Shown: positions 6,585 through 50,862 of the stretch, piece by piece
How positions within the stretch are numbered: position 1 is the first letter of the stretch
How the letters are laid out: each line of letters opens with the position of its first letter
Assembly: GCA_963771885.1 (NCBI GenBank)
Contig: CAVYVF010000023.1
Coordinates: 512,001 to 576,000, forward strand
DNA: 64,000 bases
Direction of reading: 5' to 3'
Origin: Candidatus Bathyarchaeota archaeon
GTDB taxonomy: Archaea > Thermoproteota > Bathyarchaeia > TCS64
Translations under genes and position numbers: made by a program
Notes under the pieces: generated by a model
What the model saw: the letters and a program-made list of their open reading frames with translations, nothing else
Told to the model about the DNA's origin: nothing
Databases searched by the model: none

Positions 6585-6744
6585 GGTTCAAACCTCATAA
6601 ACAGATACGGGTCGAGGCACAGGACACGGCGAGGCTATGCGGGGCTGCCTTGACCATCCTCGACTCCTTGTGACTTCGATTGTAGGGGTTATAAGGTTTC
6701 TCAGAGTCTGAATATACACTAATTATTCCTAGAGGACTTATGAG

Positions 6745-7998: not shown

Positions 7999-8007
7999 AG
8001 TCGGGGG

Positions 8008-9193: not shown

Positions 9194-9535
9194 TTACTTC
9201 TCGACCTCGAATTGCGGCTCAGGAATAGGAGCAGAGCGATAAGGACCCATCTTATCATAGAGGTCAACCACCGCATTCCTCAGGGCGAGGTCAAGCCTCG
9301 TGAACGGCTTAGCCTCCTTCTGGTACAGAACGGCGCGGTAGGGCTCCAACCTGGCGCTGAGGGTATCCGCGGCGACCTTCACCTCACCCCTCTCCCTCCA
9401 CTGGTAGACCAGACTCCCAACCTCATGCGGTGTCGTCAAGACAGTGACCCTGAAGGAGCCGCTTAGCATCGACTTCGTCCTCTCCAGATCGAGTGGCGTG
9501 TTCCACCTGAATCTGACATGATGATAGGGCTCCAT
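9194..9535 (-). CDS. Hypothetical protein, paralog of 9558..9941
   Basis: Shares PYH-x-x-RFRW-x-x-PLDLE, ADTLSA, PYRAVLYQ-x-E-x-x-PFT-x-x-DL with its neighbour. Confidence 0.8.
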   Translation of the reverse strand: MEPYHHVRFRWNTPLDLERTKSMLSGSFRVTVLTTPHEVGSLVYQWRERGEVKVAADTLSARLEPYRAVLYQKEAKPFTRLDLALRNAVVDLYDKMGPYRSAPIPEPQFEVEK

Positions 9536-9557
9536 AACCTTCAAGTGATTCTTCTCG

Positions 9558-9941
9558 TCAAGGCGGGATAGGCTTTTCGGTGTCCCGCCCCTCAACCTCG
9601 TATCTGGGCTCGGAGTCTCCGCCCCAGGGGAAGGGTGTCGGAGTCGTCTTATCGTAGTTCTTGAGAACCCAGGCCCGGAGGCGGAGATCCTTCTCCGTGA
9701 ACGGCCTGCGCTCCCTCTGGTAGAGGACCGCCCTGTAGGGGCTCACGGCGGCGGAGAGCGTGTCGGCGTGGGCGATGACCTCGTCCCTCTGGTCGCCGTA
9801 GAGTGTGAGCTCGACGGCGTCCTTTGGCCGGACTCTCTTCGTGGCTGCGAAGTCGGCGCCCAGCTCCGCCGTGGCGGCCTCGAGGTCGAGGGGCCTCATC
9901 CAGCGGAACCTCGAGTAGTGGTATGGTCTCGACAAGATCAT
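9558..9941 (-). CDS. Hypothetical protein, paralog of 9194..9535
   Basis: Same conserved blocks as the neighbouring ORF, which supports coding status. Confidence 0.8.
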   Translation of the reverse strand: MILSRPYHYSRFRWMRPLDLEAATAELGADFAATKRVRPKDAVELTLYGDQRDEVIAHADTLSAAVSPYRAVLYQRERRPFTEKDLRLRAWVLKNYDKTTPTPFPWGGDSEPRYEVEGRDTEKPIPP

Positions 9942-33557: not shown

Positions 33558-34339
33558 TTACTTGAGCTTCTTCCTCGCCCAGTCGGCGAGCTCCTTCCCT
33601 GTCGGGAACCAGACGTCGCCGCCCTCTTTCGCCTCGGAGACGAGCCTTTCTAGTACTTTGAGTCGGCTGAGTTTACCGATGCACTCGGGGTGACAGGTGA
33701 GCCCAAAGTATAGACCCGCTTCGTGTATCGCCTCCCACTCCGGCTTCCAGAGTTGGTACACCTGCTCAGGTGCGCTCCTGTCCATCTCGAAGTGGGGCCA
33801 GTCGTCGAGCAGCCACTCGACTGGAAGTTCCACGAACCCGTGGGTTTACCTTTATGGTCGAGCATGTAAGGCATATCATCGTCCATCATGTTACTGCTAT
33901 ACTTGAAGCCAAGGCGCTTCATGTGGTTGATGCTGCGGTCGCCGAACATCCAGTAAGGGGCGCGGTATCCATCCGGCTTTACGCCCACCTTCTCCAGCGC
34001 AGCCATGCTCCTTTCCCAGACGTCTGCCTCCTTCTCGGCGGTGAGGTCGGTCATCTTCTCGTGTGCGTAGCTGTGCGCACCGATCTCGTGCTCCCTGCTC
34101 AGAATTTCCTTGACCGAGTCGGGGTGGTTGTCGCACGTCCAACCCGGAATGAAGAACGTCGTCTTCAACTCGTACCTATCAAGCAGGTCGAGTATACGGG
34201 GGATCGCGACACGCGGCGCGTAGCGCCCCTTGCTCAGCGATGAGAGATCGTCCGGGGTCTTCCATGTCTCCGCGCTAGAAGCGTCGTAGTCGAAGCTCAG
34301 GAAGAAGCAACTCTTGTAGCCCTTGGGCCAGAAACCCAT
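33558..34339 (-). CDS. Polysaccharide deacetylase (CE4, PuuE/PgdA-like), frameshift near 33835
   Basis: SFDYDA, TFFIPG, HEIGAHSYAH, GYRAP, ELPVEWLLDDW, HPECIG. Confidence 0.88.
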
Positions 34340-34435
34340 CAATACACCGGTTGGATACCCGTGCCGAAACAGATTTTAAACCTTCTACCCAACGCGGGGA
34401 AACCCTCATCACCCGCACCCGCAGAGTGGATCGGG

Positions 34436-35206
34436 ATGAAAAGCGGCGCTCTCGAACGTGCATTCACCACCCGCTTACTGGCGATGACGAATGGCGAGCC
34501 ACTTGAGGTGAACGCACTACGCGACTCCCTGCGTATAACCGCCGAGGCTTTCGACTCGTTGATGCAGAGCTTCTCCGACAGCGGGCTACTCTCGATCCAG
34601 AATGGATCCATCTTTCTTAGTTTGGAGCAGAGGCTCGACATCGCCATGAGGGCGATCGAGGTAGGCGCCGACCCTGAGGCGGTTAGCAGGTGCCTCGGCT
34701 GGCTTGAGTTCGAGGAACTCTCGGCGAGGGTATTCGAGTCTAACGGGTTCCGCGTCATGCGCCGGTTCAGGTTCACGGCCGAGGGGAGACGTTGGGAGCT
34801 CGATCTCCTAGCCGTCTGCACCCCCTACCTCGTCTGCTGCGAATGCAAACACTGGGGCAAGGGAATGGGGAACCAGACAGCGAGGAGTATCATAGAGATA
34901 CACCTTGAGAAAGTGGAGGTATTTTCCAAGCACATCGAGGGACTAAGGGAGCGTATAGGTATCTGTGGCTGGTCGCGAGCTGTAGCACTGCCGATGGCTC
35001 TAACTCTATCCGCGACGCCGATGGAGCTATACCGACGCGTCCCCTCCGTTTCTGTCCTATCCCTCCCAAGCTTCATAAACGAATTCAGGGGCCAACTCGA
35101 ACGCCTCGCTAACTTCAAGCTAGAGTTGACCCCAGTAAAAACCAAAAATAAACAGACTAAACCGAAGAATGGGGTCAGCGGCTCCAGGCGAGCTCGCCGT
35201 CGATGA
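34436..35206 (+). CDS. PD-(D/E)xK restriction-endonuclease-like protein (Mrr/NERD-like) with N-terminal wHTH
   Basis: W-x-EFEE, ELDLLA, ECKHW. Confidence 0.8.
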   Translation: MKSGALERAFTTRLLAMTNGEPLEVNALRDSLRITAEAFDSLMQSFSDSGLLSIQNGSIFLSLEQRLDIAMRAIEVGADPEAVSRCLGWLEFEELSARVFESNGFRVMRRFRFTAEGRRWELDLLAVCTPYLVCCECKHWGKGMGNQTARSIIEIHLEKVEVFSKHIEGLRERIGICGWSRAVALPMALTLSATPMELYRRVPSVSVLSLPSFINEFRGQLERLANFKLELTPVKTKNKQTKPKNGVSGSRRARRR

Positions 35207-36359
35207 TTACCTTCTCGACCTTCGTCTTGAGTTCGAGTGGGTCACCACTTAGAATGCGTATATCGGCATCCTTGCCCTTCTCGAGACTTCCAACGCGTTC
35301 ACCGACCCCAATTATCTTGGCGGGGTTGATGGTTATCGCCTTCAGCGCCTCCTCGTAGGGCAGACCCTCCCTGCAGGCGAGACCCGCGCAGATGGGGAGG
35401 AACGCGATCGTGCTACCCACTGCATCCGTCTGGATGGCGAAGAAGACGCCAGCGTCGAAAAGCGCCTTTGGCGTCTCGAAGCTGAGTTCCCTCATCTCCC
35501 ACTTGCCCCTCGCTGTGAGGCTAGGTCCCCAGATGGCGGGCACCTTCTTCTCCGCGAGCCACTTTGCTACGCGGTGTCCCTCCGTCGCATGCTCCCAGCT
35601 CATCTGGAGCCCGAATTCCTCGCATATCCTGATTGCTGTGGCGACGTCGTCCGCCCTGTGGGCGTGTGCCCTTAGGGGTATCTGTTTCTTCACGACTGGC
35701 ATGAGTGCTTCGAGGCGTGGGTCTCTCTCCGGCATCTTGATCGGATCTTTCTGCTGTCTCGCGGACTCCGTCTTCTCCGCGTAGAGAAGTGCCTTGTTTA
35801 GCCACTCCCTCATGAGGGCGGCTACGCCCATGCGTGTGCTGGGCATCTTCTTGTACTCGACGCCATAGACGCGGCGCGGGTTCTCCCCGAAGGCGACTTT
35901 CATCCCTGAGGGGTTCTTTATCACCATTTCGTCGACTGTGACCTTGCGCGCTGTCTTTACGACTACGCCGGTGCCGCCGATCACGTTGGCGCTCCCCGGT
36001 AGTATCTGTGCCGTTGTGACCCCCGTGCAGAGAGCCGCTGCAAGCCCCGACTCGTCCGCATTAGCCTTGATGCCGTCGATCGCCCTCATGTGGGGCGTAA
36101 TCGGCTCCGTCGCCTCGTTACCGTCGCTGCCGTACCACCCAACGGACTCCTCCCAGATCCCTATGTGGCAGTGAGCCTCGACCAGTCCAGGCATCACTAC
36201 CTTCCTGTTAGCGTTGATGACCTTCGCGTCGGCGGGGATCTTGACGTCCTTGCCAACCGCCTTTATCTTTCCCTTCTCGATGAGTATCACGCCGCCGTCG
36301 ATGACGCCGTTCGTGATTGTGAGAACCTTGCCACCTTTTATCGCGAGCATTTGAACCAC
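35175..36359 (-). CDS. Metal-dependent amidohydrolase
   Basis: MPGLVEAHCHIG, PGSANVIGG, KVAFGENP, HAHRADD, GSLEKGKDAD. Confidence 0.92.
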   Translation of the reverse strand: MVQMLAIKGGKVLTITNGVIDGGVILIEKGKIKAVGKDVKIPADAKVINANRKVVMPGLVEAHCHIGIWEESVGWYGSDGNEATEPITPHMRAIDGIKANADESGLAAALCTGVTTAQILPGSANVIGGTGVVVKTARKVTVDEMVIKNPSGMKVAFGENPRRVYGVEYKKMPSTRMGVAALMREWLNKALLYAEKTESARQQKDPIKMPERDPRLEALMPVVKKQIPLRAHAHRADDVATAIRICEEFGLQMSWEHATEGHRVAKWLAEKKVPAIWGPSLTARGKWEMRELSFETPKALFDAGVFFAIQTDAVGSTIAFLPICAGLACREGLPYEEALKAITINPAKIIGVGERVGSLEKGKDADIRILSGDPLELKTKVEKVIIDGELAWSR

Positions 36360-36464
36360 GGCTTACACTTAGGGTGATTTGATATTTTAGCCTTAAACCA
36401 TTAAGCCGCAGCACCTATTGAGCCGAAAGAAGGCTGAAACGAACACCGTGCCAACTAACCTGTC

Positions 36465-36490
36465 GAAAAAATGGGAAAAAGAAAGGAAAG
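36465..36490 (-). terminator. Pyrimidine/T-rich archaeal-type terminator after the four-gene membrane operon
   Basis: Minus strand reads ctttcctttctttttcccatttttt just after the corrected stop at 36502. Confidence 0.45.
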
Positions 36491-36501
36491 GTGGGTTAGG
36501 G

Positions 36502-37228
36502 TTACTGCTTCTTGTTCCTCTGCATGAGGTCGTAGCCGATCATCGTCGCGAGCATTATCAACGCGATGACGATGAAGGCTGGTACTGCTTCCGCGTGGGT
36601 TCGGAGTGATGCCCAGCAGGAACTGTGCGCGTCCGATGAACATGCTGTACCTTGTGAGTATCGTGTAGCCGAAGCCAGCTCCGAAGCCGGCCATCATCGT
36701 GTACCTCGCAACCCTGTCGATGACCTTCATTGGGGTGGAGTCCCTGTAACTTCCAGTGAACCAGAAGTATAGGACTACACATGGCACCATTATGAAGATC
36801 ATGATGTTGTTGAAGGATTTCATCAGGTCGCCTGCGACCCATAGGTTGAGCTTCGCTTGGGCGATTATCTGCGTCGTGAACTGGGCGAAGATGACCGTCC
36901 TGAGTGCAGCGCCTATGCCTGTGCCTACGATGATGGCGAGTGGCCAGCGGTAGAGGTAGAAGTATTGCTTCGTGAAACGGAAGTACCAGAGCAGCCCAAC
37001 CAGAATTGCTAGGGCGTAGCCGATCATCATTATCGATGATGATGACCATTGCCCCGCCCACTGGTCGCGGACGTACTTCATGTCGAGGGCGACTTGGTAC
37101 CCTACGGCGAGCCCTAGGAATACTGACTCTGCGAACCTATACCATGGGTTCTCCTTGTATAGGATAGTGTAGATGGCTAGTGTGAAGAAGACTGCTGAGT
37201 ATACGCCTAGTAGCTGTATTAGTTCCAT
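36502..37228 (-). CDS. Uncharacterised multi-TM membrane protein (operon gene 4), frameshift near 36595
   Basis: YKENPWYRFAE, GFGAGFG; corrected C-terminus AEAVPAFIVIALIMLATMIGYDLMQRNKKQ* restores a final TM helix. Confidence 0.82.
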
Positions 37229-38058
37229 TATTTCTTCTTCCCCCTGTTGACGAAGTAGGCTATGTTACCCAGGACTACCAGTGCGACGACGAGTATGTGG
37301 CTCATAGAGACGGCGTCTACGCCTGCGATGGCGAGTCCCTTTCTGTTGAGCAGGAGCTCATACTCTGCGCTCGACGTAAGGCCGGGCAGCAGGGCGTTGA
37401 GTTGTCCTGACTGGAGGAAGGGTGCCATTCCAGGTGCTGAGACTCCGATGCAGCCGACGACGATGGGTGTCTTGTATGGCTCGTTCCACTGGCGGAGCCA
37501 CTCGGTGAGCCCGGGTGTACCAGTCTCGATGCTGATGATGAGGTCGATGTCGTTTGCGCTGTTTACAGTCTGCATTATCGGGAACTCGCTAAGGTTCTTG
37601 CCCTCGATATAGTCCTTAGCGACAGCCTTCGCCATGTCGTCACCGAACGCCCTCATGGCGGGTTCGCTTCCGGGGATGTAGCCGAGGTTGATCCAGTCCT
37701 CGCCGTAGACCTTACCGTAGCTGGTCGGGTCCATCTGGGCGAGGAGCTGCGTGAAAACAAGCGGTCCCTCCGCCCAGAAACTCACGACGATGACCTTGAC
37801 GTCTTTGCTCCATAACTGGTGCATGGTGGCTAGGGTCATCGGGAAGAGCTCAGGCATCCCGGATGTGCCGTACATGGGTGCGAATACAACTGTGCTCCCG
37901 TCTGGTATGTCGCTGATCGCCTTGAACCACTGCTGTGATTCCTTGTTGATTGGGACGGGGAGTCCTAGTGGGTAGATGAGTGGGAAGAGTACGAAGAGCC
38001 ATGAGAGAAGATAGACCCAGCGTCTATCTAGGTTCTCAAACTTGTCGAAGAACGACAT
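37228..38058 (-). CDS. Uncharacterised membrane protein with soluble alpha/beta domain (operon gene 3)
   Basis: N-terminal TM, YGEDWINLGYIPG, PFLQSGQL, AEYE, C-terminal TM. Confidence 0.85.
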   Translation of the reverse strand: MSFFDKFENLDRRWVYLLSWLFVLFPLIYPLGLPVPINKESQQWFKAISDIPDGSTVVFAPMYGTSGMPELFPMTLATMHQLWSKDVKVIVVSFWAEGPLVFTQLLAQMDPTSYGKVYGEDWINLGYIPGSEPAMRAFGDDMAKAVAKDYIEGKNLSEFPIMQTVNSANDIDLIISIETGTPGLTEWLRQWNEPYKTPIVVGCIGVSAPGMAPFLQSGQLNALLPGLTSSAEYELLLNRKGLAIAGVDAVSMSHILVVALVVLGNIAYFVNRGKKK

Positions 38059-38711
38059 TAGTCACTGCCTCCCCTGAGGTAGCCACGCTCGATGCCCATC
38101 AGAGTCCTGACGGCGAGGGCGATAGCCCCCAGCGCCGCACCGATTGTAACCGCCCTGTTAGTCGCCATGTTGGGTACATCGTAGATCCACTGGCCGATTA
38201 TCCTAAAACCAGGCCACGACGCCGTGAATACTGGTGCATTGTACATGACCATGGCTAAACCAGCTACGAGTACGAGGGTCGCCTCGATATTCTTAGCTCT
38301 GAAGGCGCGGTAAGCCGCCGACGTAATGAAGAAGGCGATGATTCCGTACATCGTGCCCGAGAGCGGGGTTTGGCCGTATGTGAACAACCACTGGTAAACA
38401 GCGTTAGTAGTTCCTAGGCCGACCTCTGCGAATGGCAGGCCCGTTATGGACATTATCACCGTAGCGATTAGTACAACCACACTGAAGTACCACCCCTTGC
38501 CTCTTTTCTGGACCGCCTTGCCGTGGACCTGCATCAGGCTGAGTGGCCCGATGAAGGTGGCCCACGCGACAACTAGAATGACCCAGAGGTTTACTGTGTT
38601 AGCCGTGTCGTTGATGACGGGTATGTTGATGTAGTAGGGTATGACCTGAAGCAGCGTAGCGATAATCGTGAGGAAGATGGGTATCTCGATTCTTCTAAGC
38701 ACGTTACTCAT
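38058..38711 (-). CDS. Uncharacterised multi-TM membrane protein (operon gene 2)
   Basis: AFFITSAAYRAFRA, VPNMA, R-x-L-x-GIER; about 6 TM. Confidence 0.85.
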   Translation of the reverse strand: MSNVLRRIEIPIFLTIIATLLQVIPYYINIPVINDTANTVNLWVILVVAWATFIGPLSLMQVHGKAVQKRGKGWYFSVVVLIATVIMSITGLPFAEVGLGTTNAVYQWLFTYGQTPLSGTMYGIIAFFITSAAYRAFRAKNIEATLVLVAGLAMVMYNAPVFTASWPGFRIIGQWIYDVPNMATNRAVTIGAALGAIALAVRTLMGIERGYLRGGSD

Positions 38712-38715
38712 AGTA

Positions 38716-39513
38716 TCACCACGACATTACTGTCAGGAGCGGGTTCCCAGCGGCGGTGAGTGCCGTCGTGAGTAGCGCCCCGACTATGCCGAGTATGACG
38801 GCGATTATCCTTCCGAAGTCCTGGCCAGCGAGGCTCGCGATGAGTGGCGCCTCGTTCGTCAGGTATGCTCCGGCGGCGTAGATCTCCTCGCCAATAAGGC
38901 AATAGTCTGTGGAGACGAGGAAGAAGGGTATCTGGCTGGTCTGGGCCGTGCCACTGATCTGCATTGCGCCGACGCGGCTGCCGGTCTCGGCTAGCTGCAT
39001 CGATTCGGCCCAGTAGGCGCCGATCATGATGTTGGCGCCGGGTTTCTCCCTCATGAGAAGGCCGATGTAGTTGCTTGAGAATCCGAACTGTTCGCTGCTG
39101 AGGTACATGATGTCACTCTGCTGGTACTCCTCTCCCTTGCCCGCCATCTTGTAGGCGGTCTCGACGACATCAGCGGCGATGGGCCACACCTCCGGTTGGC
39201 GTACCGGAACGATTAGGCGTGTGCTGACCTCGGCACACTTCTTGGCCACGTAGCTGAGGACGCTGAGACCGGCGATGGTTTGCGGGCCGGTTGTCGAGTC
39301 CCTGAGGTTGGCGATGCCGTGGCTGGCTATCACGGGGCGGCCCATCTCGACGGCTCGGCCTATCGCCTCGTCGATGGCGTCTATGCCGGGAATCCGTCGG
39401 ACCTTGGGAACCTTGCCCCCCTGAGCCCGCCTGATGAAATAAGCGACTGCCAACATGATCGCTAGTAGGCAGACAAATCCGAACATCCTATTTGCTATCA
39501 GAATTGAAGCCAA
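38716..39513 (-). CDS. DUF6754-like membrane-anchored protein (operon gene 1)
   Basis: RRIPGIDAIDEAIGRAVEMGRP, AE-x-G-x-x-x-GAMQI, QIPFF, LIGEE-x-YAAGAYL; family assignment from recall. Confidence 0.8.
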   Translation of the reverse strand: MASILIANRMFGFVCLLAIMLAVAYFIRRAQGGKVPKVRRIPGIDAIDEAIGRAVEMGRPVIASHGIANLRDSTTGPQTIAGLSVLSYVAKKCAEVSTRLIVPVRQPEVWPIAADVVETAYKMAGKGEEYQQSDIMYLSSEQFGFSSNYIGLLMREKPGANIMIGAYWAESMQLAETGSRVGAMQISGTAQTSQIPFFLVSTDYCLIGEEIYAAGAYLTNEAPLIASLAGQDFGRIIAVILGIVGALLTTALTAAGNPLLTVMSW

Positions 39514-39987
39514 TCTTTAGCCTCCGTTTAGGCAAAAATTAATCAGTCCTAAAGCGTATTTAAGATTTAATTCGATGGAAACTAAATAAAAGCAATAATT
39601 ATGGGATAATACTGATAATTTTCTTACAAACAATATAACTATTTGGAATTCTCTATAGATGCGATTGAGGCATACGCGGGTCAAGTTGACGTGTTTGCGG
39701 CGGTTACTGCGGAGGGAATTCTCCTTCTCTTCCTCATTTAGGGCGAGCCTCTGCTCCATGGTTGTCTCGTAGTACTCGATTTCGTTTGCCCATAGTCCCT
39801 TTGACCCTCCTGCGCTCTGTCCGAGTGGTGACGGAAATCGCCTCCCCCGAAGCCATGAACCTCGGACTTGGTAGCTCTTCTAAAGACCTTGGCTCGAAGC
39901 CAGCGCCTCGAAGATTATTATGAAGAGAACCAAGTTATTGACAGTCCAATTCTATGTAACAGTATTGGGTGCGGGGATAAAGTGTGG

Positions 39988-41823
39988 CTACTTGAGCCTG
40001 ACGACCTTGTTAAGGGCTTCAGCTTCCTGCTCGAGGCCTAGCTTCCTCATCGTCGCCTTCGTCGGTATGCCCCTAACGTCCCAGCCCCGCTTCTCGTAGT
40101 AGTCCGAGAGGAGGCCATCATACTTTGCCTTGTCGAGCTTCTTCCCTGCGAGTGGTCCCTCGGTTAGTGGCTCCTTGAACCAGCGCTCCGGCGGATAGTC
40201 CTGAGCACAATCCCACTTACCGTTGAACTCACGTACCCAAAATGCGCGTATAAGGGCATAGACGCGGTCACCAAGCGTCCACATGTCGTCGAGGCTCCAC
40301 TTGAGCCCGGTCGCCGCCTCCATATAACGTGGGTAATGATCGACCTCAAATCCCAACTCGATCCAAGGGAACCTACAAGCGACGAGGCTCTCAAACATAC
40401 CACCGCGTATCCGCTGGAACTCAATGACTTTATCGGCCTTCTCTGGTCCATACTCCTCACGCTTCCCCGTGCTTATCTCCCAGCTTATCACCCATGCGTC
40501 TTTATGGTGGGCGCCTATGGGGCTGGTTCCGAAGCTTAGGCTCATCCCCGGGCAGAGGTGGCAGTCGTATGCGCTGCACTCGAGGCCCTTAACCTGCATC
40601 GCGAAGTCTATGGAGCCCTTTCCGATAATGTCGGCAGCAGCCTTCGTGCCGAGGCCGAAGACGGCGCCATGGCCCCGCATGTAAGCCATGTCCTCGAGGA
40701 GCCTCTGGGATCCCTCGAAGTCGCCCCAGCTGAGCTTGAGGTCCTTAACCATATTCTTCTCACTGCACTCCATGGCGAAGCCGATAGCGCTGCCGGCACT
40801 GATGGTGTCGAGGCCAAGCATGTCACACATCCTGTTGAGGCGACCGACCTGTTTGAGGTCGCCGACACCGATGTTGCTGCCGAGCATTACGACGTTCTCG
40901 TAGTCGAGTTCGGACTCCTCGCCGTTTGTGTCGAGGATGACGTTTCCACATATCATATTGCAGTTGGGGCAACCTCGCTGCTTGACAGTCGACGCCTCCA
41001 TGGTGTTGCCGTCGATCTCCTTGCTGTGATCGAAGACGCCCTCGCGGAAGTTACGGGTAGGAAGGGTAGAAGCTGCCTGACACCATTCGACTGTCGCCAT
41101 CGTACCCTGTGCCTTCCAGTGTTTGTAGTTGGGTCGCTTAAGTAGGTCAAGGAAGTCCTCCTTACCCATCTTCTTGAGGGCGTCCATGTCTGCGACGGGT
41201 ATCTCACCGGTGCCGTGGATGACGACCGCTTTCAGGTTCTTGCTGCCCATGACGGCGCCCATCCCGGGGCGGCCGCCAGCACGTCCCTCCTGAGACACCA
41301 CGGTGGCGAACCTACAGAGATTCTCGCCGCTCTGCCCAATGCTGAGGACGCCGGCGGTGGCTCCGTGTTCCGCCTTAAGGCGCTTCTCCGTCTCGTAGCT
41401 GTCTTTGCCCCAGAGGTCCTCGGCGATCCTGAGCTGGACCTCATCGTCGCTTATCCAGACATAGGTGGGCTTCTTCGCCTTGCCGGTGACTACGATGCCG
41501 TCCAAGCCCGCCTTGCGCATATTGGGAGAAGCCATGGTGCCGAGGTTGCCGTCCCCGTAGCCCCCGGTGAGGGGGCTCTTGGCAGCGACGACCATCTTAC
41601 CGCTATTCACTGCGGGCAACCCCGCATAGAGTCCGCCAGCGAAGACGAGGATATTCTTGGGACCGAGCGGGTCGATGCCGGGTTCCATTTCATCCCAGAG
41701 CAGCTTAACGGCGAGTCCGCGCCCGCCTATGAACTTCTTGGCGAGTTCCTCCGAGTACTCGGCGTGAACCGCTTTTCCTTTCGTGAGATCGACCCTTAGT
41801 AGGCGCCCAGTCCACCCCTTCAT
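39988..41823 (-). CDS. Aldehyde:ferredoxin oxidoreductase family tungsto/molybdo-enzyme (canonical CxxCxxxC)
   Basis: IGGRGLA, KSPLTG, GRPGMGAVMGSKNLKA, CPNCNMIC, DYE, GLDTIS, VKGLE, YYEKRGWD. Confidence 0.93.
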   Translation of the reverse strand: MKGWTGRLLRVDLTKGKAVHAEYSEELAKKFIGGRGLAVKLLWDEMEPGIDPLGPKNILVFAGGLYAGLPAVNSGKMVVAAKSPLTGGYGDGNLGTMASPNMRKAGLDGIVVTGKAKKPTYVWISDDEVQLRIAEDLWGKDSYETEKRLKAEHGATAGVLSIGQSGENLCRFATVVSQEGRAGGRPGMGAVMGSKNLKAVVIHGTGEIPVADMDALKKMGKEDFLDLLKRPNYKHWKAQGTMATVEWCQAASTLPTRNFREGVFDHSKEIDGNTMEASTVKQRGCPNCNMICGNVILDTNGEESELDYENVVMLGSNIGVGDLKQVGRLNRMCDMLGLDTISAGSAIGFAMECSEKNMVKDLKLSWGDFEGSQRLLEDMAYMRGHGAVFGLGTKAAADIIGKGSIDFAMQVKGLECSAYDCHLCPGMSLSFGTSPIGAHHKDAWVISWEISTGKREEYGPEKADKVIEFQRIRGGMFESLVACRFPWIELGFEVDHYPRYMEAATGLKWSLDDMWTLGDRVYALIRAFWVREFNGKWDCAQDYPPERWFKEPLTEGPLAGKKLDKAKYDGLLSDYYEKRGWDVRGIPTKATMRKLGLEQEAEALNKVVRLK

Positions 41824-41987
41824 GTGACACACCTGAAGGCTGTTGAGATTGAAGGTTGATAAAGATTGAGCCATCGAGATGTTTAGTAATTCATATCGTT
41901 TTATGGTGTGAGGAAAATGCACAACTGAAAATCAGGGGGTGTATCAGGGCTTATATCCCCACGCGGGTAGACCGATAGAGACAATCT

Positions 41988-42470
41988 ATGTCGATTGAAG
42001 CAAGGTTGAGAGAGCTTGGCATATCACTCCCTGAGCCAACAAAGGCGCCGCCCACGTTTCGCCAGACCTTCCCGTTCGTGAGGGTTCACGGCGACAGGGC
42101 GTACGTATCGGGGCACGGACCAACTGGTCCAGATGGCTCAATTGTGAAGTATACCGGTAAGGTAGGCGCGGGGGTCACGCAGGACGACGCATATAAGGCT
42201 GCGCGCCTTACGGGTCTGGCCATCCTGTCCGACCTCAGGCAAGAGCTGGGTGACCTCGACAGGGTAGAGAAGTGGTTAAAAGTGCTTGGGCTGGTCAACG
42301 CTGCGCCAGGCTTCACGAACATGCCTGCCGTTGTGAACGGGTTCAGCGACCTCATCATCGAGGTCTGGGGAAAAGAGGCGGGCAGGCACGGGAGATCAGC
42401 AATAGGCGTGGCGGAACTACCCTTCGGAATACCCGTGGAAATAGAGGCAGAGGTTCTAATTCAGCCCTAG
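41988..42470 (+). CDS. RidA/YjgF family protein
   Basis: YVSGHGP, GKVG, VNGFSD, HGRSAIGVAELP. Confidence 0.9.
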   Translation: MSIEARLRELGISLPEPTKAPPTFRQTFPFVRVHGDRAYVSGHGPTGPDGSIVKYTGKVGAGVTQDDAYKAARLTGLAILSDLRQELGDLDRVEKWLKVLGLVNAAPGFTNMPAVVNGFSDLIIEVWGKEAGRHGRSAIGVAELPFGIPVEIEAEVLIQP

Positions 42471-42742
42471 CCGCCAGCTGTAGGCTGCATTACAACTATC
42501 TCGTCCCCGTCCCTCAGCATTGTGCCGGGGCCGTCGATCATATCGATGTTCTTCCCGTTTACAAGCACTGCGAGGTCCTTGCCTCCGACCTGGAACTCGC
42601 CTAAGAAGCCCATACGCTGACCCGACTTCTCCCCTACCTTGTTTGTCACGGTTGATACGGTGGAGCCTTCTGGGACGTCGATCTCATGGCGCTTGCCGAT
42701 TATCTGAGAGACATCGCCGAAGACGCGTACGAGTATCTTCAT
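42467..42742 (-). CDS. moaD: MoaD/ThiS ubiquitin-like sulfur carrier
   Basis: VLVNG, L-x-DGD, C-terminal PTAGG. Confidence 0.85.
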   Translation of the reverse strand: MKILVRVFGDVSQIIGKRHEIDVPEGSTVSTVTNKVGEKSGQRMGFLGEFQVGGKDLAVLVNGKNIDMIDGPGTMLRDGDEIVVMQPTAGG

Positions 42743-43070
42743 TGATAAAAGCCCGGGGCTCGAGGAAAATAAGGGTTGAGAGGATTTCCGTTTCCTTTGA
42801 TGACACTTTACGTCGGAAAATGCATCGGTTCAAGTGAATTTCTAAACAAAAAAAAGGTCAGCGCGCGATCCCACTGGTGCCGTACTCACTCTATTTGGGT
42901 GTAGGATAAACTACAAATTTTCGCTGTGGAGAAGGCAACTCTACTACGAGGGCGTGAAATGGCTCTTGTTCTCGAATGAGGATGTACTCGACGCACTCGG
43001 AATCTTACACGGTTATCGTACCGCTGTTTCTATTTGCTTCACTCTGGGAGTTTTTCCCACTGTTAGGAGG

Positions 43071-44939
43071 TTATGCCCTCAGCTTCTTCATCTGTGGCTC
43101 ACAGTCGCCCAGCCCCATCTTGATGAGGGTCTTATTCGTCGGTATTCCACGCTCGTCCCAGCCTAGTGTGGCGAAGTAGGTTTGCAGTTTCTTGTCTACC
43201 TTCGCCTTGTCGGTAGTCTTGCCCTTGTACGGGCCGTTGGGTAGTGGTTCGTAGAAGCGTGGTGGGTTGTCGTCGTCCTTGATTGGCTCCCAAGTCACGT
43301 CGGGGCCGCCGAGCAGTAGTAGCACCTTCTGGAGGGTCACTATGCGTGGTCCGGTGACCCTACGCCAGCTCTCAAGTGTGATTGGGAACCCGGTTATTGC
43401 CTTGGCGAAGTCGATGACAAGGTCCTGTGGGACGCCGTTGTAGGCGAAGCTGCAGAAGACGCCGCAGTCCGCAAATATGCTCCCTGACATGTCCGTGTAG
43501 CCGTCGTAGACGAGGCTCGTATGGTCGCCACCCTGAACCGAAGCGGCGTAGCCGATGTCGTGAGCGAAGTCAGCGTCGCTACGCGTGCCGTGGGCGCCGA
43601 CCTCGATTCCCTTAACGACGATTGCGTACTTGAGGAGTTCCTCGGGCTTCATGCCCTTCATCTCAGCGATCTTCAAGGCGGCGCGGTAAGTACCCTCGGC
43701 GATGACGTCGCCGATGCCCTCTCTCTTCGCCACCATGCGCATGAGGCGATCGAATGCGTCAACGTTACCCCATTCCAGCTTGAAGCCGATGTCCTCCTCG
43801 GTGAGTATGCCCCTCTGGTAGAGCTCAGCCGCGTAGCTCATGGCGCTCATACCGTTGATGCCGGAGTGGCCGAGGAGGTCGCATAGGGTGCTCAGGTGCA
43901 CGATTTCGCCAGCGTCGAATATGCCGAAGTTGGTACCGCAGTGGCTCTCCAACTCGTAATCAGGCATGTCGGTGATGTCGCCCTTGAAGCGGCCCGATTT
44001 AATGCAGCTGACCTTCATGCAGTTTGTCGTGCAGTTAAAGTCGGTCCACTTCTTCTTGACCCAGAACCGGGTCTCAAACATGGGACCGCCGATGCTCCTC
44101 TCGTCATGCCACTCCTCCTGCCAGTTCCTTATGGGCTCGCTGCTCGTGTTGTTGCCGAAACTGTAGCCACCGTAGCCTGTACCCCATCGGCGGAACTGGG
44201 TACGGGCTATCAGGTGCTCGTGGGTCCTCTTCCAGATGAGCTTGGCCGCCTCGGGTGCGTTCGGCCTCGGCATCATGGCGCGCCCCTTGGCGACGATCGC
44301 CTTGAGGTTCTTCGACCCCATCACGGAGCCGTAGCCGCCGTAGCCGCAGGCGTGGCAGAGCTTCGTCATCACCGCGGCATTGCGGACCAGGTTCTCCCCC
44401 GCGGGGCCGATGTATATCTGCCCGGGCTCGCGCCACAGCCCGACGCTCGGCTTCCTCTTCGAGAAGTATGCGTCCGTCTCCCTGTTGAGAGCGATGAGGG
44501 TCTTCTCCCCGTCCAGCCCCCAGAGGTGTTTCGCCGACACGATCTCGCTGCCGTCGTTTGTGACCCTTATATAGACGGGCTCGTCCGCCCTTCCTGAGAC
44601 AATCACGCCGTCATAGCCGGCGCACTTGAGCTCGTGGGCGAACTCGGTGGATGCTGTGGAGCCGACTGTGCCGTTGCTCATGGGGCTCTTACCGGAGACG
44701 CATATTCTGCCCCCGGGGTAGATGCCCGTCATCGGCCCCGTGAGGGCGATGAGGAGGTTATCAGGGCTGAGGGCGTCGACCTTACTCCAGCGCTTCCCCA
44801 GTCTGTCCCAGAGTATTTTCGCGGCGAGCCCCCTGCCGCCGAAGAACATCTCAAGCGTCTCGTCACCGAAGATAATGTCCTTGATCTTCCCCCTCGTGAG
44901 GTCTACATCAAGAAACTTCCCCGCGTATCCGCCGGGCAT
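43071..44939 (-). CDS. AOR-family oxidoreductase, paralog C (DxxCxxxC)
   Basis: FGGRGLA, GKSP, MGSKNLKA, DFNCTTNC, PDYE, VKGIE. Confidence 0.92.
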   Translation of the reverse strand: MPGGYAGKFLDVDLTRGKIKDIIFGDETLEMFFGGRGLAAKILWDRLGKRWSKVDALSPDNLLIALTGPMTGIYPGGRICVSGKSPMSNGTVGSTASTEFAHELKCAGYDGVIVSGRADEPVYIRVTNDGSEIVSAKHLWGLDGEKTLIALNRETDAYFSKRKPSVGLWREPGQIYIGPAGENLVRNAAVMTKLCHACGYGGYGSVMGSKNLKAIVAKGRAMMPRPNAPEAAKLIWKRTHEHLIARTQFRRWGTGYGGYSFGNNTSSEPIRNWQEEWHDERSIGGPMFETRFWVKKKWTDFNCTTNCMKVSCIKSGRFKGDITDMPDYELESHCGTNFGIFDAGEIVHLSTLCDLLGHSGINGMSAMSYAAELYQRGILTEEDIGFKLEWGNVDAFDRLMRMVAKREGIGDVIAEGTYRAALKIAEMKGMKPEELLKYAIVVKGIEVGAHGTRSDADFAHDIGYAASVQGGDHTSLVYDGYTDMSGSIFADCGVFCSFAYNGVPQDLVIDFAKAITGFPITLESWRRVTGPRIVTLQKVLLLLGGPDVTWEPIKDDDNPPRFYEPLPNGPYKGKTTDKAKVDKKLQTYFATLGWDERGIPTNKTLIKMGLGDCEPQMKKLRA

Positions 44940-44969
44940 GTCTTTCACTCCAAAAAATTTGAGGGAGTC

Positions 44970-46839
44970 CTACTCCCTGAACTTCTTCATCGTGGACTCG
45001 CAGTCGCTGAGCCCGAGCTTCTTCAGCGTCTCTTTGGTCGGGATGCCCCTAGCGTCCCAGCCGAGGGTGTTGAAGTAGGCCTGGAGCTTCTCATCCACCT
45101 TCTTGTGGTCGGTTGTCTTCCCCTTGAATGGGCCGGTTGGCAGCGGCTCGTAGAAGCGCGGAGGGTTGTCGTCGTCCTTGATGGGGTCCCAGGTCACGTC
45201 GGGGCCGCCCATGAGGAGGAGCACCTTCTGCAGGGTCACTATGCGAGGGCCGGTAACCTTGCGCCAGCTCTCGACTGTGATGGGGAAGCCCGTGATCCCC
45301 TTGGCGTAGTCGAAGGCGAGCACCTGCGGGACAGCGTAGTAGCAGAAGTTGCAGAAGACCGCGGAGTCGGTGAATACGTTTGTGCTCATCTCCGAGTACC
45401 CGTCGACAGCGACCGAGGTGTGGTCCCCACCCTGTACGCTCGCCGCGTAGGCGATGTCGTGCGTGTAGTCGGCGTCGCTGCGGGTCCCGTGGGCACCGAT
45501 CTCGATGCCTTTCACGTGGACGGCGTACTTGAGGAGCTCCTCTGGCTTCATCTTCTTCATCTTGGCGATCTTGACCGCCGCCCTGTAGGTGCCCTCGGCG
45601 AGTACGTCGCCTATCTTCTGCCTCTTGGCGATGAGCCAAGCGAGCTTTTCCATCGACTCGGCGTCGCCCCAGATCGGCTTGAAGCCGAAGTCCTTCTCCT
45701 TGAGTATGCCCCTCTGGTATAGCTCGGCGGCGAAGCCCATCGTGTTGGGACCGTTGATGCCGGAGTGCCCCAGTTTATCGATTATTGTGCTTATGTGAAT
45801 GGTGTCAGCGGCGTCGAATATGCCGAGGTTCGTGCCACAGTAGGCCTCGAGCTCGTAGTCGGGCATGTCGGTGATGTCGCCCTTCCACTTGCCCGACTTG
45901 ATACAGGTGACCTTCATGCAGTTTGTCGTGCAGTTGAAGTCAGCCCACTTCTTCTTGACCCAGAACTTGTTCTCGAACTTTGGGCCGCCCATGTTCTTCT
46001 CGTCGTGCCACTCCTCCTGCCAGTTCTTGACGGGCTCTGAGCTCGTGTCGGCCCCTACGGCGTAGCCGCCGTAGCCGGTACCCCAGCGGCGCATCCTCGT
46101 CTGGGCGATGAGGTACTCGTGCGTCCTCTTCCACATGACCTTGACCGCCTCGGGGGCATCGACTACTGGGAGCCTGCCCCTGCCCTTTGCGACGATCGCC
46201 TTCAGGTTCTTCGAGCCCATGAGGGCGCCGTAGCCTCCGTACCCAGCGGCGTGGCACACCTTCGTCATAACGGCGGCGTTGCGGACCATGTTCTCCCCTG
46301 CGGGGCCCGTGTAAATGATGCCGGGCTCCTTCCAGAGGCCAACGAGGGGTTTCTTCTTTGTCAGGTCTGCCGTGACCTCCTTGTTGAGGAGCTTTATCGT
46401 GTCCTCGCCAACAGTACCCCATAGGTGCTTCGCAGGCTTGATCTCGCCTCCGGTATTCGTGATCTGGATGTAGACGGGCTCGTCCGCCTTTCCCGTGACG
46501 ATGACGCCGTCGTAGCCCGCCATCTTGATCTCGGATGCGAACTCTGTCGAAGCGGTCGAGCCGACGACGCCGTTACTCGTCGGGCTCTTACCCGAGCACA
46601 TTATGCGTGCGCCAGGGTAGATCGCCGTCATCGGCCCAGTAAGGGCGAGGAAGATGTTCTCCGGATCGAGTGCGTCGATCTCCCCCCACTTCTTGCCAAT
46701 ACGGTCCCAGAGAATCTTCGACGCAAGACCCCTACCGCCGAAGTACATCTCAAGCGATCTCATCGTCAAACGTTGTGTCCTTTATCTTCCTCTTCGTGAG
46801 GTCGACGTCAAGGAACTTGCCCGCGTATCCTCCGGGCAT
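44970..46839 (-). CDS. AOR-family oxidoreductase, paralog B, frameshift near 46775
   Basis: MPGGYAGKFLDVDL start at 46839 in a different frame from the body; DFNCTTNC. Confidence 0.9.
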
Positions 46840-47361
46840 CTAGATTACCTCCTCGCCCTTCTCGCCGAAGAAGAAGACCGCGAGCTCCTTCGCCACCTCG
46901 AGCGGCGGCCTGCTGAACAGCTTCTTGTTAACGTTCGGCCCCTCGGGAACCACGGTCAATGCGTTATAACCCGCCTCGACGCAGACCTTTACGCACTCAG
47001 GGTCGCCGTTGCATAGGTTACAGATGACCGCCTTGTTTGTCTCGGGGTGCAGGTAGGGCACTTGGCCAGGGCACGCCCTGATGCAGCTGCCACAGCTTAT
47101 GCACTTCTCCTTATCCACTATGACCGCCGTCGTGACGGGGTCGACGCTCAGTGCCTTCGGGGCGCAGGACGCCACGCATGGGTAGTCATTGCACTGTGCG
47201 CAGAGGTGCGGCACCTCGACGCCAGGGAAGGGCATGAAAACCCTCACCATCGACGCCTCGGGGAACATCCACCCCTCCCACTTCATGCTGCATGCCAGCT
47301 CACAGCGCTTGCAACCACTGCAGGCGGCGTAGTCTCGGGCGATCCAGATCGGTTTGCTCAT
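46840..47361 (-). CDS. Four-cluster 4Fe-4S protein (DmsB/HydN type), AOR small subunit
   Basis: Four Cys groups: CSGCKRC-x3-C, CAQC-x4-C-x3-C, CISCGSC-x3-CP, CNLC-x5-C-x3-C. Confidence 0.92.
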   Translation of the reverse strand: MSKPIWIARDYAACSGCKRCELACSMKWEGWMFPEASMVRVFMPFPGVEVPHLCAQCNDYPCVASCAPKALSVDPVTTAVIVDKEKCISCGSCIRACPGQVPYLHPETNKAVICNLCNGDPECVKVCVEAGYNALTVVPEGPNVNKKLFSRPPLEVAKELAVFFFGEKGEEVI

Positions 47362-47511
47362 TCGTTCACCAGAATAGGTACTCTGAGCCAACGAAGCGAT
47401 AAAAAAGCTTCGAAAAACAGGGGAACCCGCCGAAATACACAGTAAAACATATCGAATCGGGGAAAAACCGAGAAAAATGCCTGAAATTATCGAAAACGGT
47501 TTAAAACCCGG

Positions 47512-48443
47512 CTATATGACTACCGGTGCCCCTTTGAGCAATTTATCTGCAAATGACTCTATTATAAAACGCTTCGAGAGCCCAGAGACCAACCCGGCGG
47601 GTATCGCATCGACGCCGTAGTAGGCGCCTGCCAATTGTCCATAGACTGCTCCCACCGTATCCGCGTCGTCCCCGAGATTCACAGCGAGCAGGCAGCCCTC
47701 CTCGAATGTGCTCGTCTTGTTGAATGCCCACAGGGCGGCCTCAAGCGTCTTCACCGCCGTACCGAGGGCCTGTATATCGGGCGGCTCAGCCCCCCTGTAG
47801 GAGCCCCGTGCAACAACCGCGACCTCGGACGACAGAGGCGCTCTGCTCCATATTCCCCTAGCCGGTTCGTACATGTCGGTGAGGAGTCGTTCCTTTCTCT
47901 CTCCGATGAGCGCCCCCACAATAAGTGCACCAAGGTACCTGCACGAGTCAACAGCCGCAGGGGCGCCGTGAGTCGTCTTCGAGCTCAGCCCGGAGTACTT
48001 CACCGCATCTTCCGGATGGGCGTGGAAGAAGAGCGGGACGGGGGCGAGCCTCATCAGGCTCCCGTTGCTCGCCTTCGAGGGATCAGTCGGCCCAGAGTAG
48101 GGGTCTCCCGTGTCGAGGAACCTCTGCAGGCTCCACCTCGTCGTGTTGCCGATGTCGAAGCAGTTGCCGGTACAGCTCAGGTGACCCTCTCTCCACCATG
48201 CTATGTACCTCTCCGCCTGGTCACGTGGGTCGAAACCGAGCTTCTCGACGAGGCTCTCAGCGAGGCAGAGAGCAAGGCTCGTGTCATCCGTCCAGTCTCC
48301 CGCCCCGAGGTTGAATGGGCCGCCGCCCCGGTAGTCGGTTATCGGCGGGAAGCTGCCCCGGGGCTCGAACTCAACCGGAGCACCTAGGGCGTCCCCGACA
48401 GCCAATCCGAGGAGGCACCCCCTGAACCTGCTGAGAGATCCAT
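47512..48443 (-). CDS. ADP-ribosylglycohydrolase family protein (DraG-like); probable indel just after the ATG at 48443
   Basis: RFRGCLLGLAVGDALG, WTDDT, FDIGNTT, SNGSLMR, GDDADT. Confidence 0.9.
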
Positions 48444-48482
48444 CGAGGAAAAGAGAGAATTTGGAAATAAAAGGAGGAGGGG

Positions 48483-50342
48483 CTACGCACGGAGCTTCTT
48501 CATGGAGGACTCAACATCGGCTAGATCCAGCCTCTTAAGCGTCTCTTTCGTGGGTACGCCGCGCTCATCCCAGCCCACCGCCTCGAAGTATGCCTGCAGC
48601 TTCTGGTCTGTGAGCTTCTTGTCGGTGGTCCTGCCCTTGTAGGGCCCCTCTGGGAGGGGCTCGTAGAAGCGCGGCGGGTTGTCGTCGTCCTTGAGTGGCT
48701 CCCACTTCATGTCTGGGCCACCGAGCAGGAGGAGCGCCCTCTGGAGGGTGACTATCCTTGGTCCGGTCTCCTTTCTCCACGACTCGACCGTAATCGGGAA
48801 GCCGGTGATGGCCTTGGCAAAGTCGAACTCTAACTCGCGTGTCGTCCTGCAGAAGTCGCAGAAGACGCCCGAGTCGGCGAAGACGGCGTCGCTCATGTCC
48901 GTGTAGCCGTCGCTGATCGTCGAGGTGTGGTCTCCTCCCTGAACGTTGCCTGCGTAGCTTGCGTCGTGGACGTAGTCGAGGTCACTGCGAGTGCCGTGGG
49001 CGCCGATCTCGATGCCCTTGACGTGGACGACGTACTTGAGCAGCTCTTCCTTCGGTAGCCCCTTCATCTCGGCGATCTTGATGGCTGCGCGGTATGTGCC
49101 CTCTGCGAGGACATCGCCTATGCCCTCACGTTTCGCCATCATCCACGCCAACTTCGTGAATGCGTCAGTGTCTCCCCACTTTAACTCGAAACCTATGTCC
49201 TTCTTGGTGAGTATCTTGCGCTGGTAGAGCTCCGCGGCGAATCCCATCGTGTTTGGGCCATTGATGCCGCTGTGGCCGAGGTTATCGATGAGGGCGCTCA
49301 TGTGTATGTTCTCGACTGGCTCGAAAATGCCGAGGTTGGTCCCGCAGTAGGCCTGCAGCTCGTAGTCTGGGAGGTCGGTTATATCCCCCTTCCACTTGCC
49401 GTTCTTTATGCAGCTTACCTTCATGCAGTTTGTGGTGCAGTTCCAGTCCGACCACTTCTTCTTGACCCAGTAGGCCTCGAAGCGTGGGCCGGCGTAGCTC
49501 TTCTCGTCATGCCATTCGGTCTGCCAGTTCTTGATCGGCTCGCTGCTTCTATCCGCTCCCACCGTGTAGCCGAGGTAGCCTGTACCATAGCGGCGCATCT
49601 CGCTGTTAGCGATGAGAATCTGGTGGGCCTTCTTCCAAAGGAGCTTCGCCGCCTCAGGCGCGTCTGGTGCAGGCATCTTTCCCCTGCCCTTGGCGACGAC
49701 GGCCTTGAGCTTCTTGCTGCCCATGAGGGCTCCATAACCACCGTAGCCCGCCGCATGACATATCTTGCTCATGACGCCGCTGTTTCGGACCATGTTCTCG
49801 CCAGCGGGGCCGATGTAGATGCTTCCCGGCTCACGCCAGATTCCGACGTTCGGCTTCTTCTTTCTCAGCGCTTCGGTGACTTCCCTGTTAAGTACCTTGA
49901 TGGTCTCCTCGCCGACTTTACCCCAAAGGTGCTCCGCGGGTCTGATCTCAGCACCTTCGTCTGTGATAAGGAGGTAGACAGGCTTCTCGGCCTTGCCGGA
50001 GAGTATGACGCCGTCGTATCCGGCGCAGCGCATCTCGTGTGCGAATTCGGTGGCTGCTGTTGATCCGACGGTGCCCATGCTTACCGGGCTCTTCCCGGAG
50101 ACGCATATTCTGCCACCCGGATAAATGCCCGTCATTGGGCCGCCGAGGACGATGAGCGGGCTCTCAGGCGCGTAGGGGTCGAGGCTGTCCCACTTCTTTC
50201 CGACGCGATCCCAGAGGATCTTCGCCGCGAGGCCCCTGCCTCCGAAGTACTGCTGGAGGATCTTGTCGTCGAAACTGATCTCCTTAACCTTCTCCTTGGT
50301 GAGGTCGATGTCGAGGAACTTGCCTGCGTATCCGCCGGGCAT
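48483..50342 (-). CDS. AOR-family oxidoreductase, paralog A (DxxCxxxC)
   Basis: MPGGYAGKFL, DWNCTTNC, PDYE, VKGIEIGAH. Confidence 0.93.
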   Translation of the reverse strand: MPGGYAGKFLDIDLTKEKVKEISFDDKILQQYFGGRGLAAKILWDRVGKKWDSLDPYAPESPLIVLGGPMTGIYPGGRICVSGKSPVSMGTVGSTAATEFAHEMRCAGYDGVILSGKAEKPVYLLITDEGAEIRPAEHLWGKVGEETIKVLNREVTEALRKKKPNVGIWREPGSIYIGPAGENMVRNSGVMSKICHAAGYGGYGALMGSKKLKAVVAKGRGKMPAPDAPEAAKLLWKKAHQILIANSEMRRYGTGYLGYTVGADRSSEPIKNWQTEWHDEKSYAGPRFEAYWVKKKWSDWNCTTNCMKVSCIKNGKWKGDITDLPDYELQAYCGTNLGIFEPVENIHMSALIDNLGHSGINGPNTMGFAAELYQRKILTKKDIGFELKWGDTDAFTKLAWMMAKREGIGDVLAEGTYRAAIKIAEMKGLPKEELLKYVVHVKGIEIGAHGTRSDLDYVHDASYAGNVQGGDHTSTISDGYTDMSDAVFADSGVFCDFCRTTRELEFDFAKAITGFPITVESWRKETGPRIVTLQRALLLLGGPDMKWEPLKDDDNPPRFYEPLPEGPYKGRTTDKKLTDQKLQAYFEAVGWDERGVPTKETLKRLDLADVESSMKKLRA

Positions 50343-50343
50343 T

Positions 50344-50862
50344 TTAGATTACCTCCTCGCCCTTCTCGCCGAAGAAGTATACAGCAAGCTCCTTCGCCAC
50401 TTCTACCGGGTGCCTACTGAAGAGCTTCCTGTTGGGGCCTGGTCCCTCGTCTACGAGCATAAGGGCATTATAGCCGGCCTCCTTGCAGACCTTTACGCAC
50501 TCGGGGTCGCCGTTGCATAGGTTGCAGATGGTGGCTTTGTTCGTCTCTGGGTGGAGGATCGGCACGTTGCCGGGGCAAGCGCGTATGCAGTTGCCGCAAC
50601 TTGTGCACTTCTCCTTGTCCACGATGACTGCCTTCGTGTTTGGGTCTACTGAGAGGGCGACAGTGGGGCAGCTACCCACACATGGGTAGTCTGCACACTG
50701 TGCGCAGAGATGTGGTACCTCGACGCCGGGGAAGGGCATGAATACTCTGACCATAGACGCCTCGGGCCATATCCAACCCTCGAACTTCATGCTGCACGCT
50801 ATCTCGCACCGTTTGCAGCCGCTGCAGGCGGCGTAGTCGCGGGCGATCCAGATGTTTGCCAT
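50344..50862 (-). CDS. Four-cluster 4Fe-4S protein, AOR small subunit (paralog of 46840..47361)
   Basis: Same four Cys groups; closely similar protein. Confidence 0.92.
   Translation of the reverse strand: MANIWIARDYAACSGCKRCEIACSMKFEGWIWPEASMVRVFMPFPGVEVPHLCAQCADYPCVGSCPTVALSVDPNTKAVIVDKEKCTSCGNCIRACPGNVPILHPETNKATICNLCNGDPECVKVCKEAGYNALMLVDEGPGPNRKLFSRHPVEVAKELAVYFFGEKGEEVI

Follow-up and report, generated by a model that had tools for sequence, protein, structure and literature searches.

A DUF6754 membrane cassette of Bathyarchaeia as the possible translocating part of a solute transporter linked to an actin-fold ATPase

Four membrane-protein genes, designated A to D, form a cassette on the minus strand of a 64,000-nucleotide stretch from a Candidatus Bathyarchaeota archaeon (assembly GCA_963771885.1, contig CAVYVF010000023.1, positions 512,001 to 576,000), which is called the window below and to which all coordinates without a prefix refer. 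The first gene encodes a DUF6754 protein, and there is about an even chance that the cassette specifies the translocating portion of a solute transporter not described before, whose motor or gate would be an ATPase of the actin/Hsp70 fold (E), encoded apart from the cassette, together with its partner protein (F). Judged from gene content, ABCD is kept and lost together with the E/F pair, and it is therefore likely to be the membrane part of an ATP-coupled transporter, not a self-contained one. The four genes and the two protein segments that bear on this proposal are the following:

38716 to 39513, minus strand: gene A, DUF6754, 265 amino acids, TTG start, Pfam PF20539 with an E-value of 1e-83
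39334 to 39369, minus strand: A residues 49-60, candidate docking motif, E-A-x-G-R-A-x-E-M-G-x-P
38058 to 38711, minus strand: gene B, 217 amino acids
38085 to 38096, minus strand: C-terminal G-x-E-R tail of B
37228 to 38058, minus strand: gene C, 276 amino acids
36502 to 37228, minus strand: gene D in its intact form, six to seven predicted transmembrane (TM) helices, N-terminus outside

The association with E and F was seen in two sets of 301 genomes each. In Bathyarchaeia, A and E occur together in 90 genomes, A without E in 15 and E without A in 14, and neither is present in 182. In Bacillota, A was found in 25 genomes and F in 25, with both in 24, while PF13941, the family of E, occurs in any of its types in 120 genomes, mostly in a short type. 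No test statistic is given for these counts, because genomes of close kin are not independent. Half of the Bathyarchaeia genomes that have E without A (7 of 14) carry a PF13941 protein of the short type, and DUF6754 is absent from all seven Bathyarchaeia genomes with that type. Eight of the 15 genomes with A alone belong to a single genus, here called g84, and one Bacillota genome, G402, has A, no F and PF13941 of the short type only. A scan of GTDB, in which the best 80 of 609 confirmed matches gave 78 loci, placed E or F within 10 kb of the cassette at 25 of these loci.

A second line of evidence comes from the sequence of A itself. The candidate docking motif sits on helix 42-57, the first cytoplasmic helix in the model of A. 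Its core, G-[RK]-[ACS]-x-E, is present in all 135 A proteins outside two lineages that lack E and F and in none of the seven inside them (A proteins of more than 230 amino acids, loci L038-L155; the motif-less seven being six of g84 and that of G402). In the g84 protein of locus L135, seven of the 14 conserved positions that have been lost fall within residues 50-60. The C-terminal G-x-E-R of B is likewise missing in all seven cassettes without E/F and in 8 of the 129 others, and among eight further A sequences that cover the site, seven keep the motif. Three genomes outside g84 that have A alone (G116, G230 and G050) retain the motif, which fits missing contigs. The tree of A was midpoint-rooted and gives no direction of motif gain or loss. 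Taken together, the pattern points to residues 49-60 of A as a putative docking site for the E/F pair.

The genome under study (G000) contains two ABCD cassettes and two E-F pairs, each composed of a long PF13941 protein and a barrel-sandwich/KOW protein, and one of the pairs is preceded by a small gene, G. E has about 610 amino acids, compared with about 460 for proteins of the GlmL type, and belongs to an actin-fold family. It lies below all three relevant NCBIfam cut-offs (NF040745, TIGR01319 and NF040744), two intact E proteins scoring 208-219 against a cut-off of 475 and 204-215 against one of 600. Of 24 E proteins that were aligned, 23 contain the motifs D-x-G-S-T-T-T-K and G-G-A-T-T, which we take to be phosphate-1 and phosphate-2. 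One E copy of this genome, on C2, has degenerate phosphate motifs, and in the other copy these motifs are intact; the F of the C2 pair (G000:C2:461958-464565, L036:6959-9566) is without the C-terminal KOW-like part, and this pair is possibly a catalytically altered paralogue. F proteins give weak RnfC_N/NQRA_N barrel-sandwich matches. The glutamate mutase large subunit PF06368 was not found in this genome, which is 92% complete, and the PF09043 profile was silent here and in the control genomes alike.

Besides E and F, the commonest neighbour of the cassette is G, at 20 of 99 loci. At the g84 loci L135-L140, where there is no E or F, G is convergent to D and in five of the six adjoins a KaiC/RecA-like ATPase gene; G may be a component of the ABCD unit and not of the E/F set.

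The cassette is widely conserved. The joint occurrence of the four genes, proposed in the first-pass annotation from this stretch alone, extends to archaea and many bacterial phyla: B, C and D follow A in that order in 82 of 83 cassettes whose A gene has at least 2.6 kb downstream. The GTDB loci come from Bathyarchaeia, other archaea, Bacillota, Zixibacteria, Ignavibacteria, WOR-3, Planctomycetota, Cloacimonadota and others, and in Symbiobacterium thermophilum (L096) the whole gene set stands in one locus. The second cassette of this genome (C23:21295-24246) has the same order, is 29-37% identical to the first and has no adjacent amidohydrolase gene. PF20539 is present in 105 of the 301 Bathyarchaeia genomes and in 67 of 70 of the family to which this genome belongs, often with at least eight matches per genome. 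A is the most conserved subunit. The relatives of C form 3333 clusters at 50% identity. A fusion of A, B, C and D was not met among the proteins examined, and no search aimed at longer homologues was made.

Three tandem ABCD cassettes occur in Bacillota and other bacteria (L148, L149, L044, L073, L094 and L114). A further small membrane protein, which Pfam assigns to no family (cluster 6, 7 loci), recurs immediately 5' of either the cassette or E; it was recorded at L042, L072, L085 and L096 (about 9200-9850) and at L071, L078, L092 and L113.

The assignment of A to DUF6754 is secure: A is a full-length member of PF20539, the only family it matches, with 280.7 bits against a gathering cut-off of 27. 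B, C, D, F and G match no family above cut-off (Pfam for all, NCBIfam also for B, C and D). As had been noted from the sequence, Pfam and NCBIfam give no ABC, ECF (energy-coupling factor), TRAP or MFS match for A to D. Specifically, no parts of ABC importers (P-loop ABC ATPase, BPD_transp permease, binding protein) were found among the four, their sequences matched neither EcfT nor the S-component and ABC ATPase families of ECF systems, and there was no match to TRAP, TTT or MFS permeases (DctM/TctA-type, 12-TM MFS), the subunits having at most seven predicted TM helices. Profiles of A, B, C, D, E and F retrieved nothing among solved structures at an E-value of 0.001 or better in sequence searches, and neither C (best E-value 4e-4, TM-score 0.30) nor A was clearly matched by any structure in Foldseek. 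In the protein Atlas, B and D fall in unnamed clusters only, and the close named homologues of C are from Bathyarchaeia. By sequence, then, no subunit matches a characterised enzyme or transporter, and a literature search that mostly left out subscription titles found no paper that names DUF6754, PF20539 or PF13941 and none on the system. The conserved four-gene membrane unit thus belongs, by sequence, to no known transporter family.

The predicted structures of A and C are closely similar in plan. A comprises an N-terminal TM helix, a six-stranded Rossmann-like domain and a C-terminal TM helix (predicted local distance difference test score 94), and C repeats this layout (97). The common plan that had been read from the sequences is borne out by the models, in which the order of elements is identical (TM helix, helix, six strand-helix units, TM helix) and the two segments that had been compared both lie on the third strand of their respective domains. 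Moreover, chain 1kjn_B (MT0777) is matched over the same range by C (Z 10.2, root mean square deviation (rmsd) 3.4, 140 residues) and by A (Z 9.3, rmsd 3.3, 133 residues). A common origin of A and C is likely, although the profile-profile probability is only 2-11%. For B and D, which had also been suggested to be paralogous, a comparison of sequence profiles gave a probability of 0.7-3.9%, so that of the two proposed paralogies the one between A and C stands at the level of the fold and the other is unsupported.

The topology was predicted from the bias of lysine and arginine (K/R) over 86-120 sequences per subunit. In A, the bias is 1.4 before and 5.0 after the first TM helix, which places the domain in the cytoplasm, and in C it is 3.0 before the first and 3.1 after the last TM helix, which places the domain outside the cell; A and C are accordingly predicted to be subunits of the same fold that face opposite sides of the membrane. 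B has six predicted TM helices with both termini inside, an AAYRAFR motif in a cytoplasmic loop and, as noted, the G-x-E-R tail; the orientation of D is predicted to be the opposite. All four subunits have invariant charged residues within or next to their membrane segments (R186 of B, E34 and R193 of D, D232 of A, and H254 and N265 of C). Natural domain insertions agree with this topology. Of 13 extended homologues scanned, one has an FN3 domain in front of the first helix of A; a CARDB domain is inserted within the domain of C in homologue P0220, a zinc ribbon occurs at the N-terminus of C, and in the planctomycetotal protein P0273 (L090:1255-2598) a whole C-like domain is inserted in the outer loop between TM3 and TM4 of B, although the same cassette encodes a normal C as well. 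A further protein, P0124, has a hydrophobic segment at the N-terminus of its C-type domain, and an Ig-like domain replaces the C-terminal helix normally found; it is possibly a stand-alone surface binding protein. A conserved set of Cys/His ligands is absent from A to D, and no Cys reaches 50% conservation in B (101 sequences) or D (87 sequences). A redox complex was considered and rejected because of this absence of conserved ligands.

A, B, C and D probably form one membrane complex, in which B and D would supply about 12 predicted TM helices with invariant charged residues. E and F, together with the small protein G, would dock on helix 49-60 of A and on the C-terminal tail of B, and the ATP cycle of E/F would drive a change of access. 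The variable outer domain of C, the candidate solute-receiving subunit, would take up the solute, and paralogous cassettes would confer different specificities; the occurrence of at least eight A matches per genome in several kin is as expected of a family that bears specificity. This scheme would amount to a class of primary active transporters of its own, distributed over archaea and many phyla of anaerobic bacteria. Its motor would be an actin/Hsp70-fold ATPase, in place of one of the ABC, P-type or AAA kind, that docks on a DUF6754 coupling helix and drives a four-subunit translocase of inverted topology, and one genus of Bathyarchaeia would have a naturally uncoupled form. In this fully specified form the proposal is tentative and has somewhat less than an even chance of being right.

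The least secure step is the nature of the cargo, that is, the import of small organic solutes, here probably amino acids or peptides. The first-pass annotation had assumed peptides or amino-acid derivatives that serve a neighbouring hydrolase. When M19, M20, M55, S58 and C26 peptidases and amidohydrolases were counted, such neighbours were found at 8 of 13 loci of Bacillota type (a grouping of our own that includes two records labelled Pseudomonadota), at 5 of 10 archaeal loci and at none of 55 loci of other bacteria. For comparison, 42 of 111 tiles of 20 kb of this genome hold a peptidase or amidohydrolase gene, so that the archaeal frequency is close to the background. The cargo assumption is weakly supported, given the lack of such neighbours at the loci of other bacteria and beside the second cassette of this genome. 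Amino acids or peptides are plausible as cargo in the lineages with such neighbours, but a general rule cannot be derived from neighbourhood alone. In some Bathyarchaeia (L052, L058, L129 and L133) the cassette follows genes resembling 2-oxoacid:ferredoxin oxidoreductases, and in L058 and L129 it precedes M19/M20 peptidase genes.

It should be noted that several observations weigh against a transporter coupled to E and F. Profile searches, with G000 and G218 as positive controls, detected neither E nor F in seven g84 genomes that are 88-96% complete, and the six g84 cassettes examined are intact, share 71-77% mutual identity and have kept G next to D. G304 has no E match. In Bacillota, F has multiplied to up to eight matches, and therefore the ATPase is not simply shared. 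A divergent A at L159 is without the core motif and yet stands beside an F gene. The motif-less A proteins represent just two lineages, the six g84 proteins as one clade and G402, which both form long branches, and thus general divergence contributes to the loss. The presence of E/F was checked in the individual genome for only a minority of the 135 A proteins with the motif. By family name, the short-type proteins related to E are accessory proteins of B12 mutases and not transport motors, and the background-level frequency of peptidase neighbours in archaea, like their absence from other bacteria, lends no help to the proposed cargo. Some of these points would fit an alternative in which ABCD is by itself an ion-gradient-driven carrier or a channel, while E/F serves as a regulator or remodelling chaperone for its opening, resetting or assembly. 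B12 enzymes are served in this manner by reactivating ATPases, and the nearest named relatives of E are the accessory proteins GlmL and Or-4; RCK rings gate K+ transporters, and the domains of A and C match RCK domains with Z scores of about 8-9.5. The intact cassettes of g84 and G402 and the E copy with degenerate phosphate motifs can be read in the same way. Nevertheless, the matches to RCK domains score no better than those to unrelated Rossmann folds, and co-occurrence in 24 of 25 Bacillota genomes is tight for an optional regulator, so that this alternative is considered unlikely.

An exporter or a machine of envelope biogenesis that is driven by E/F and moves lipids, glycans or proteins is a poorer candidate and rather improbable. 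The mostly housekeeping context of the locus in Zixibacteria, Ignavibacteria, WOR-3 and Planctomycetota would suit it, as would the outward-facing FN3, CARDB and Ig domains that some homologues have gained, but the system is shared by archaea and diderm bacteria despite their very different envelopes, and genomes with at least eight copies have them in catabolic contexts. Slightly less credible still is the original proposal of the first-pass annotation, a self-contained, ATP-independent 2+2 importer that would supply adjacent hydrolases with peptides or amino-acid derivatives. Part of its pseudo-symmetry has survived, in that A and C share a predicted fold in opposite orientation and B and D are also predicted to be oppositely oriented; hydrolase neighbours do occur at Bacillota-type and archaeal loci, and lineages without E/F exist. 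Its other half has not, since no homology of B and D was detected. ATP independence is mostly contradicted, because the cassette co-occurs with E/F and the motif of A is absent where the pair is missing, although one genus of Bathyarchaeia keeps ABCD alone. Least probable of all is a receptor, in which C would sense an outside ligand and A would relay the signal to a nucleotide switch formed by E/F, with no net transport. A variable outer domain, a conserved inner domain and the expansion of paralogues would fit it equally well, but the 70 largest neighbour clusters contain no output domain or recurring regulator, and two polytopic subunits with invariant charges exceed the needs of a relay.

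An ATP-coupled transporter built from ABCD and E/F would have partial counterparts among known systems. E shares the actin-fold family and the phosphate motifs with GlmL (NF040745, TIGR01319), Or-4 (NF040744) and Pfam MutL (PF13941), but it is longer, stays below the cut-offs and has F as its partner, and a large subunit of glutamate mutase was not found in this genome; the label Or-4/GlmL-related is taken, as a name only, from passages of PMC3958899 and PMC11633334. Group II ECF transporters resemble the proposed system in that several membrane units share an ATPase module encoded elsewhere and that a few units do without the module; according to a passage of PMC11109136, solitary BioY and BtuM transport in its absence. 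They differ in that the ATPase is of the ABC type, not actin-fold, and that the present unit has four subunits, of which A and C are predicted to carry their soluble domains on opposite faces of the membrane. The domains of A and C align with RCK/KTN domains (TrkA, KtrA/C, MthK) and MT0777 (1kjn) at Z 7.6-10.2, with an rmsd of about 3-6 Å over 115-140 residues, but they have TM anchors at both ends, one of them lies outside, and no K+ channel subunit is present. The top 50 structural matches of A (Z 9.6-8.6) intersperse RCK with other Rossmann folds, and those of C show the same pattern. The Rnf/Nqr complexes contain RnfA/E and NqrD/E, subunits of about 200 amino acids with six TM helices in opposite orientation. 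B and D are alike in being two such subunits in opposite predicted orientation, but they have no conserved Cys, no Fe-S or flavin partners and no Rnf/Nqr family match. DUF6754 itself is a family without an assigned function or a solved relative.

No transporter characterised so far is known to draw its power from an actin-fold ATPase. As the family is large and expanded in Bathyarchaeia, it could explain part of the carbon uptake by these sediment heterotrophs, and g84 offers a natural ATPase-free version for comparison with motif-bearing A.

The genetic layout of the cassette is compact. The genes are co-oriented, with a gap of 4 bp between A and B and one base shared within TAATG at both B/C and C/D, as had been described. 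D, which had been given as a single frame from 36502 to 37228, is not one open frame as assembled: the open reading frame runs on to 36455 with a non-homologous tail, and the hydrophobic last helix, which ends at 36502, lies in another frame. An extra base near 36594 is missing from two relatives of the same genus (88-89% identity) and from a contig of 12,964 bases (X2) of an independent DNA run. The end point originally given is therefore right for the intact gene. A true frameshift in D was rejected on the evidence of the same relatives and contig, and the insertion is probably an assembly error. The assembly is indel-prone, because the independent run also has no break at 33836 and none in argG and an ATPase gene elsewhere. 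A polysaccharide deacetylase gene (33558-34342) and the genes argG and ATPase E (L037:3845-5165, 6669-8541) are each split by single-base indels that the independent contigs do not have.

The flanking features are the following:

39521 to 39525, minus strand: ribosome-binding site GGAGG of gene A
39514 to 39660, minus strand: AT-rich upstream region, likely promoter, guanine plus cytosine (GC) content 0.27 versus 0.58 for the window
36462 to 36492, minus strand: T-rich tract 3' of D, likely archaeal terminator, 17 T of 31
35175 to 36359, minus strand: amidohydrolase-superfamily gene (PF01979/PF07969), outside the core unit

The upstream region had been described as long and AT-rich. The AT-rich stretch is real, and its GC content is the lowest among the 147-nucleotide windows sampled, but it takes up no more than about 150 bases of an intergenic region of 474; it is likely to hold the promoter. 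The T-rich tract after D is present as described, has a similar counterpart in the relatives L117 and L118, and is likely to be an archaeal terminator. Contigs from RNA libraries of one study, from runs chosen because they hold this stretch, cover A to D and pieces of E/F; they were not used as evidence of expression level because contig depth can neither rank genes nor prove transcription.

The amidohydrolase gene lies on the same strand, 142 bases after D and beyond the T-rich tract. Its cluster is found at 13 of 99 loci, mostly the orthologous locus of Bathyarchaeia and in addition four of Bacillota type. The window cassette is flanked by aldehyde:ferredoxin oxidoreductase genes and the amidohydrolase gene, a layout that is repeated at the orthologous locus of kin. 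The region 39988-50862 contains four tandem aldehyde:ferredoxin oxidoreductase genes (the first and two more checked with Pfam), genes for two 4Fe-4S proteins and one MoaD/ThiS-like gene.

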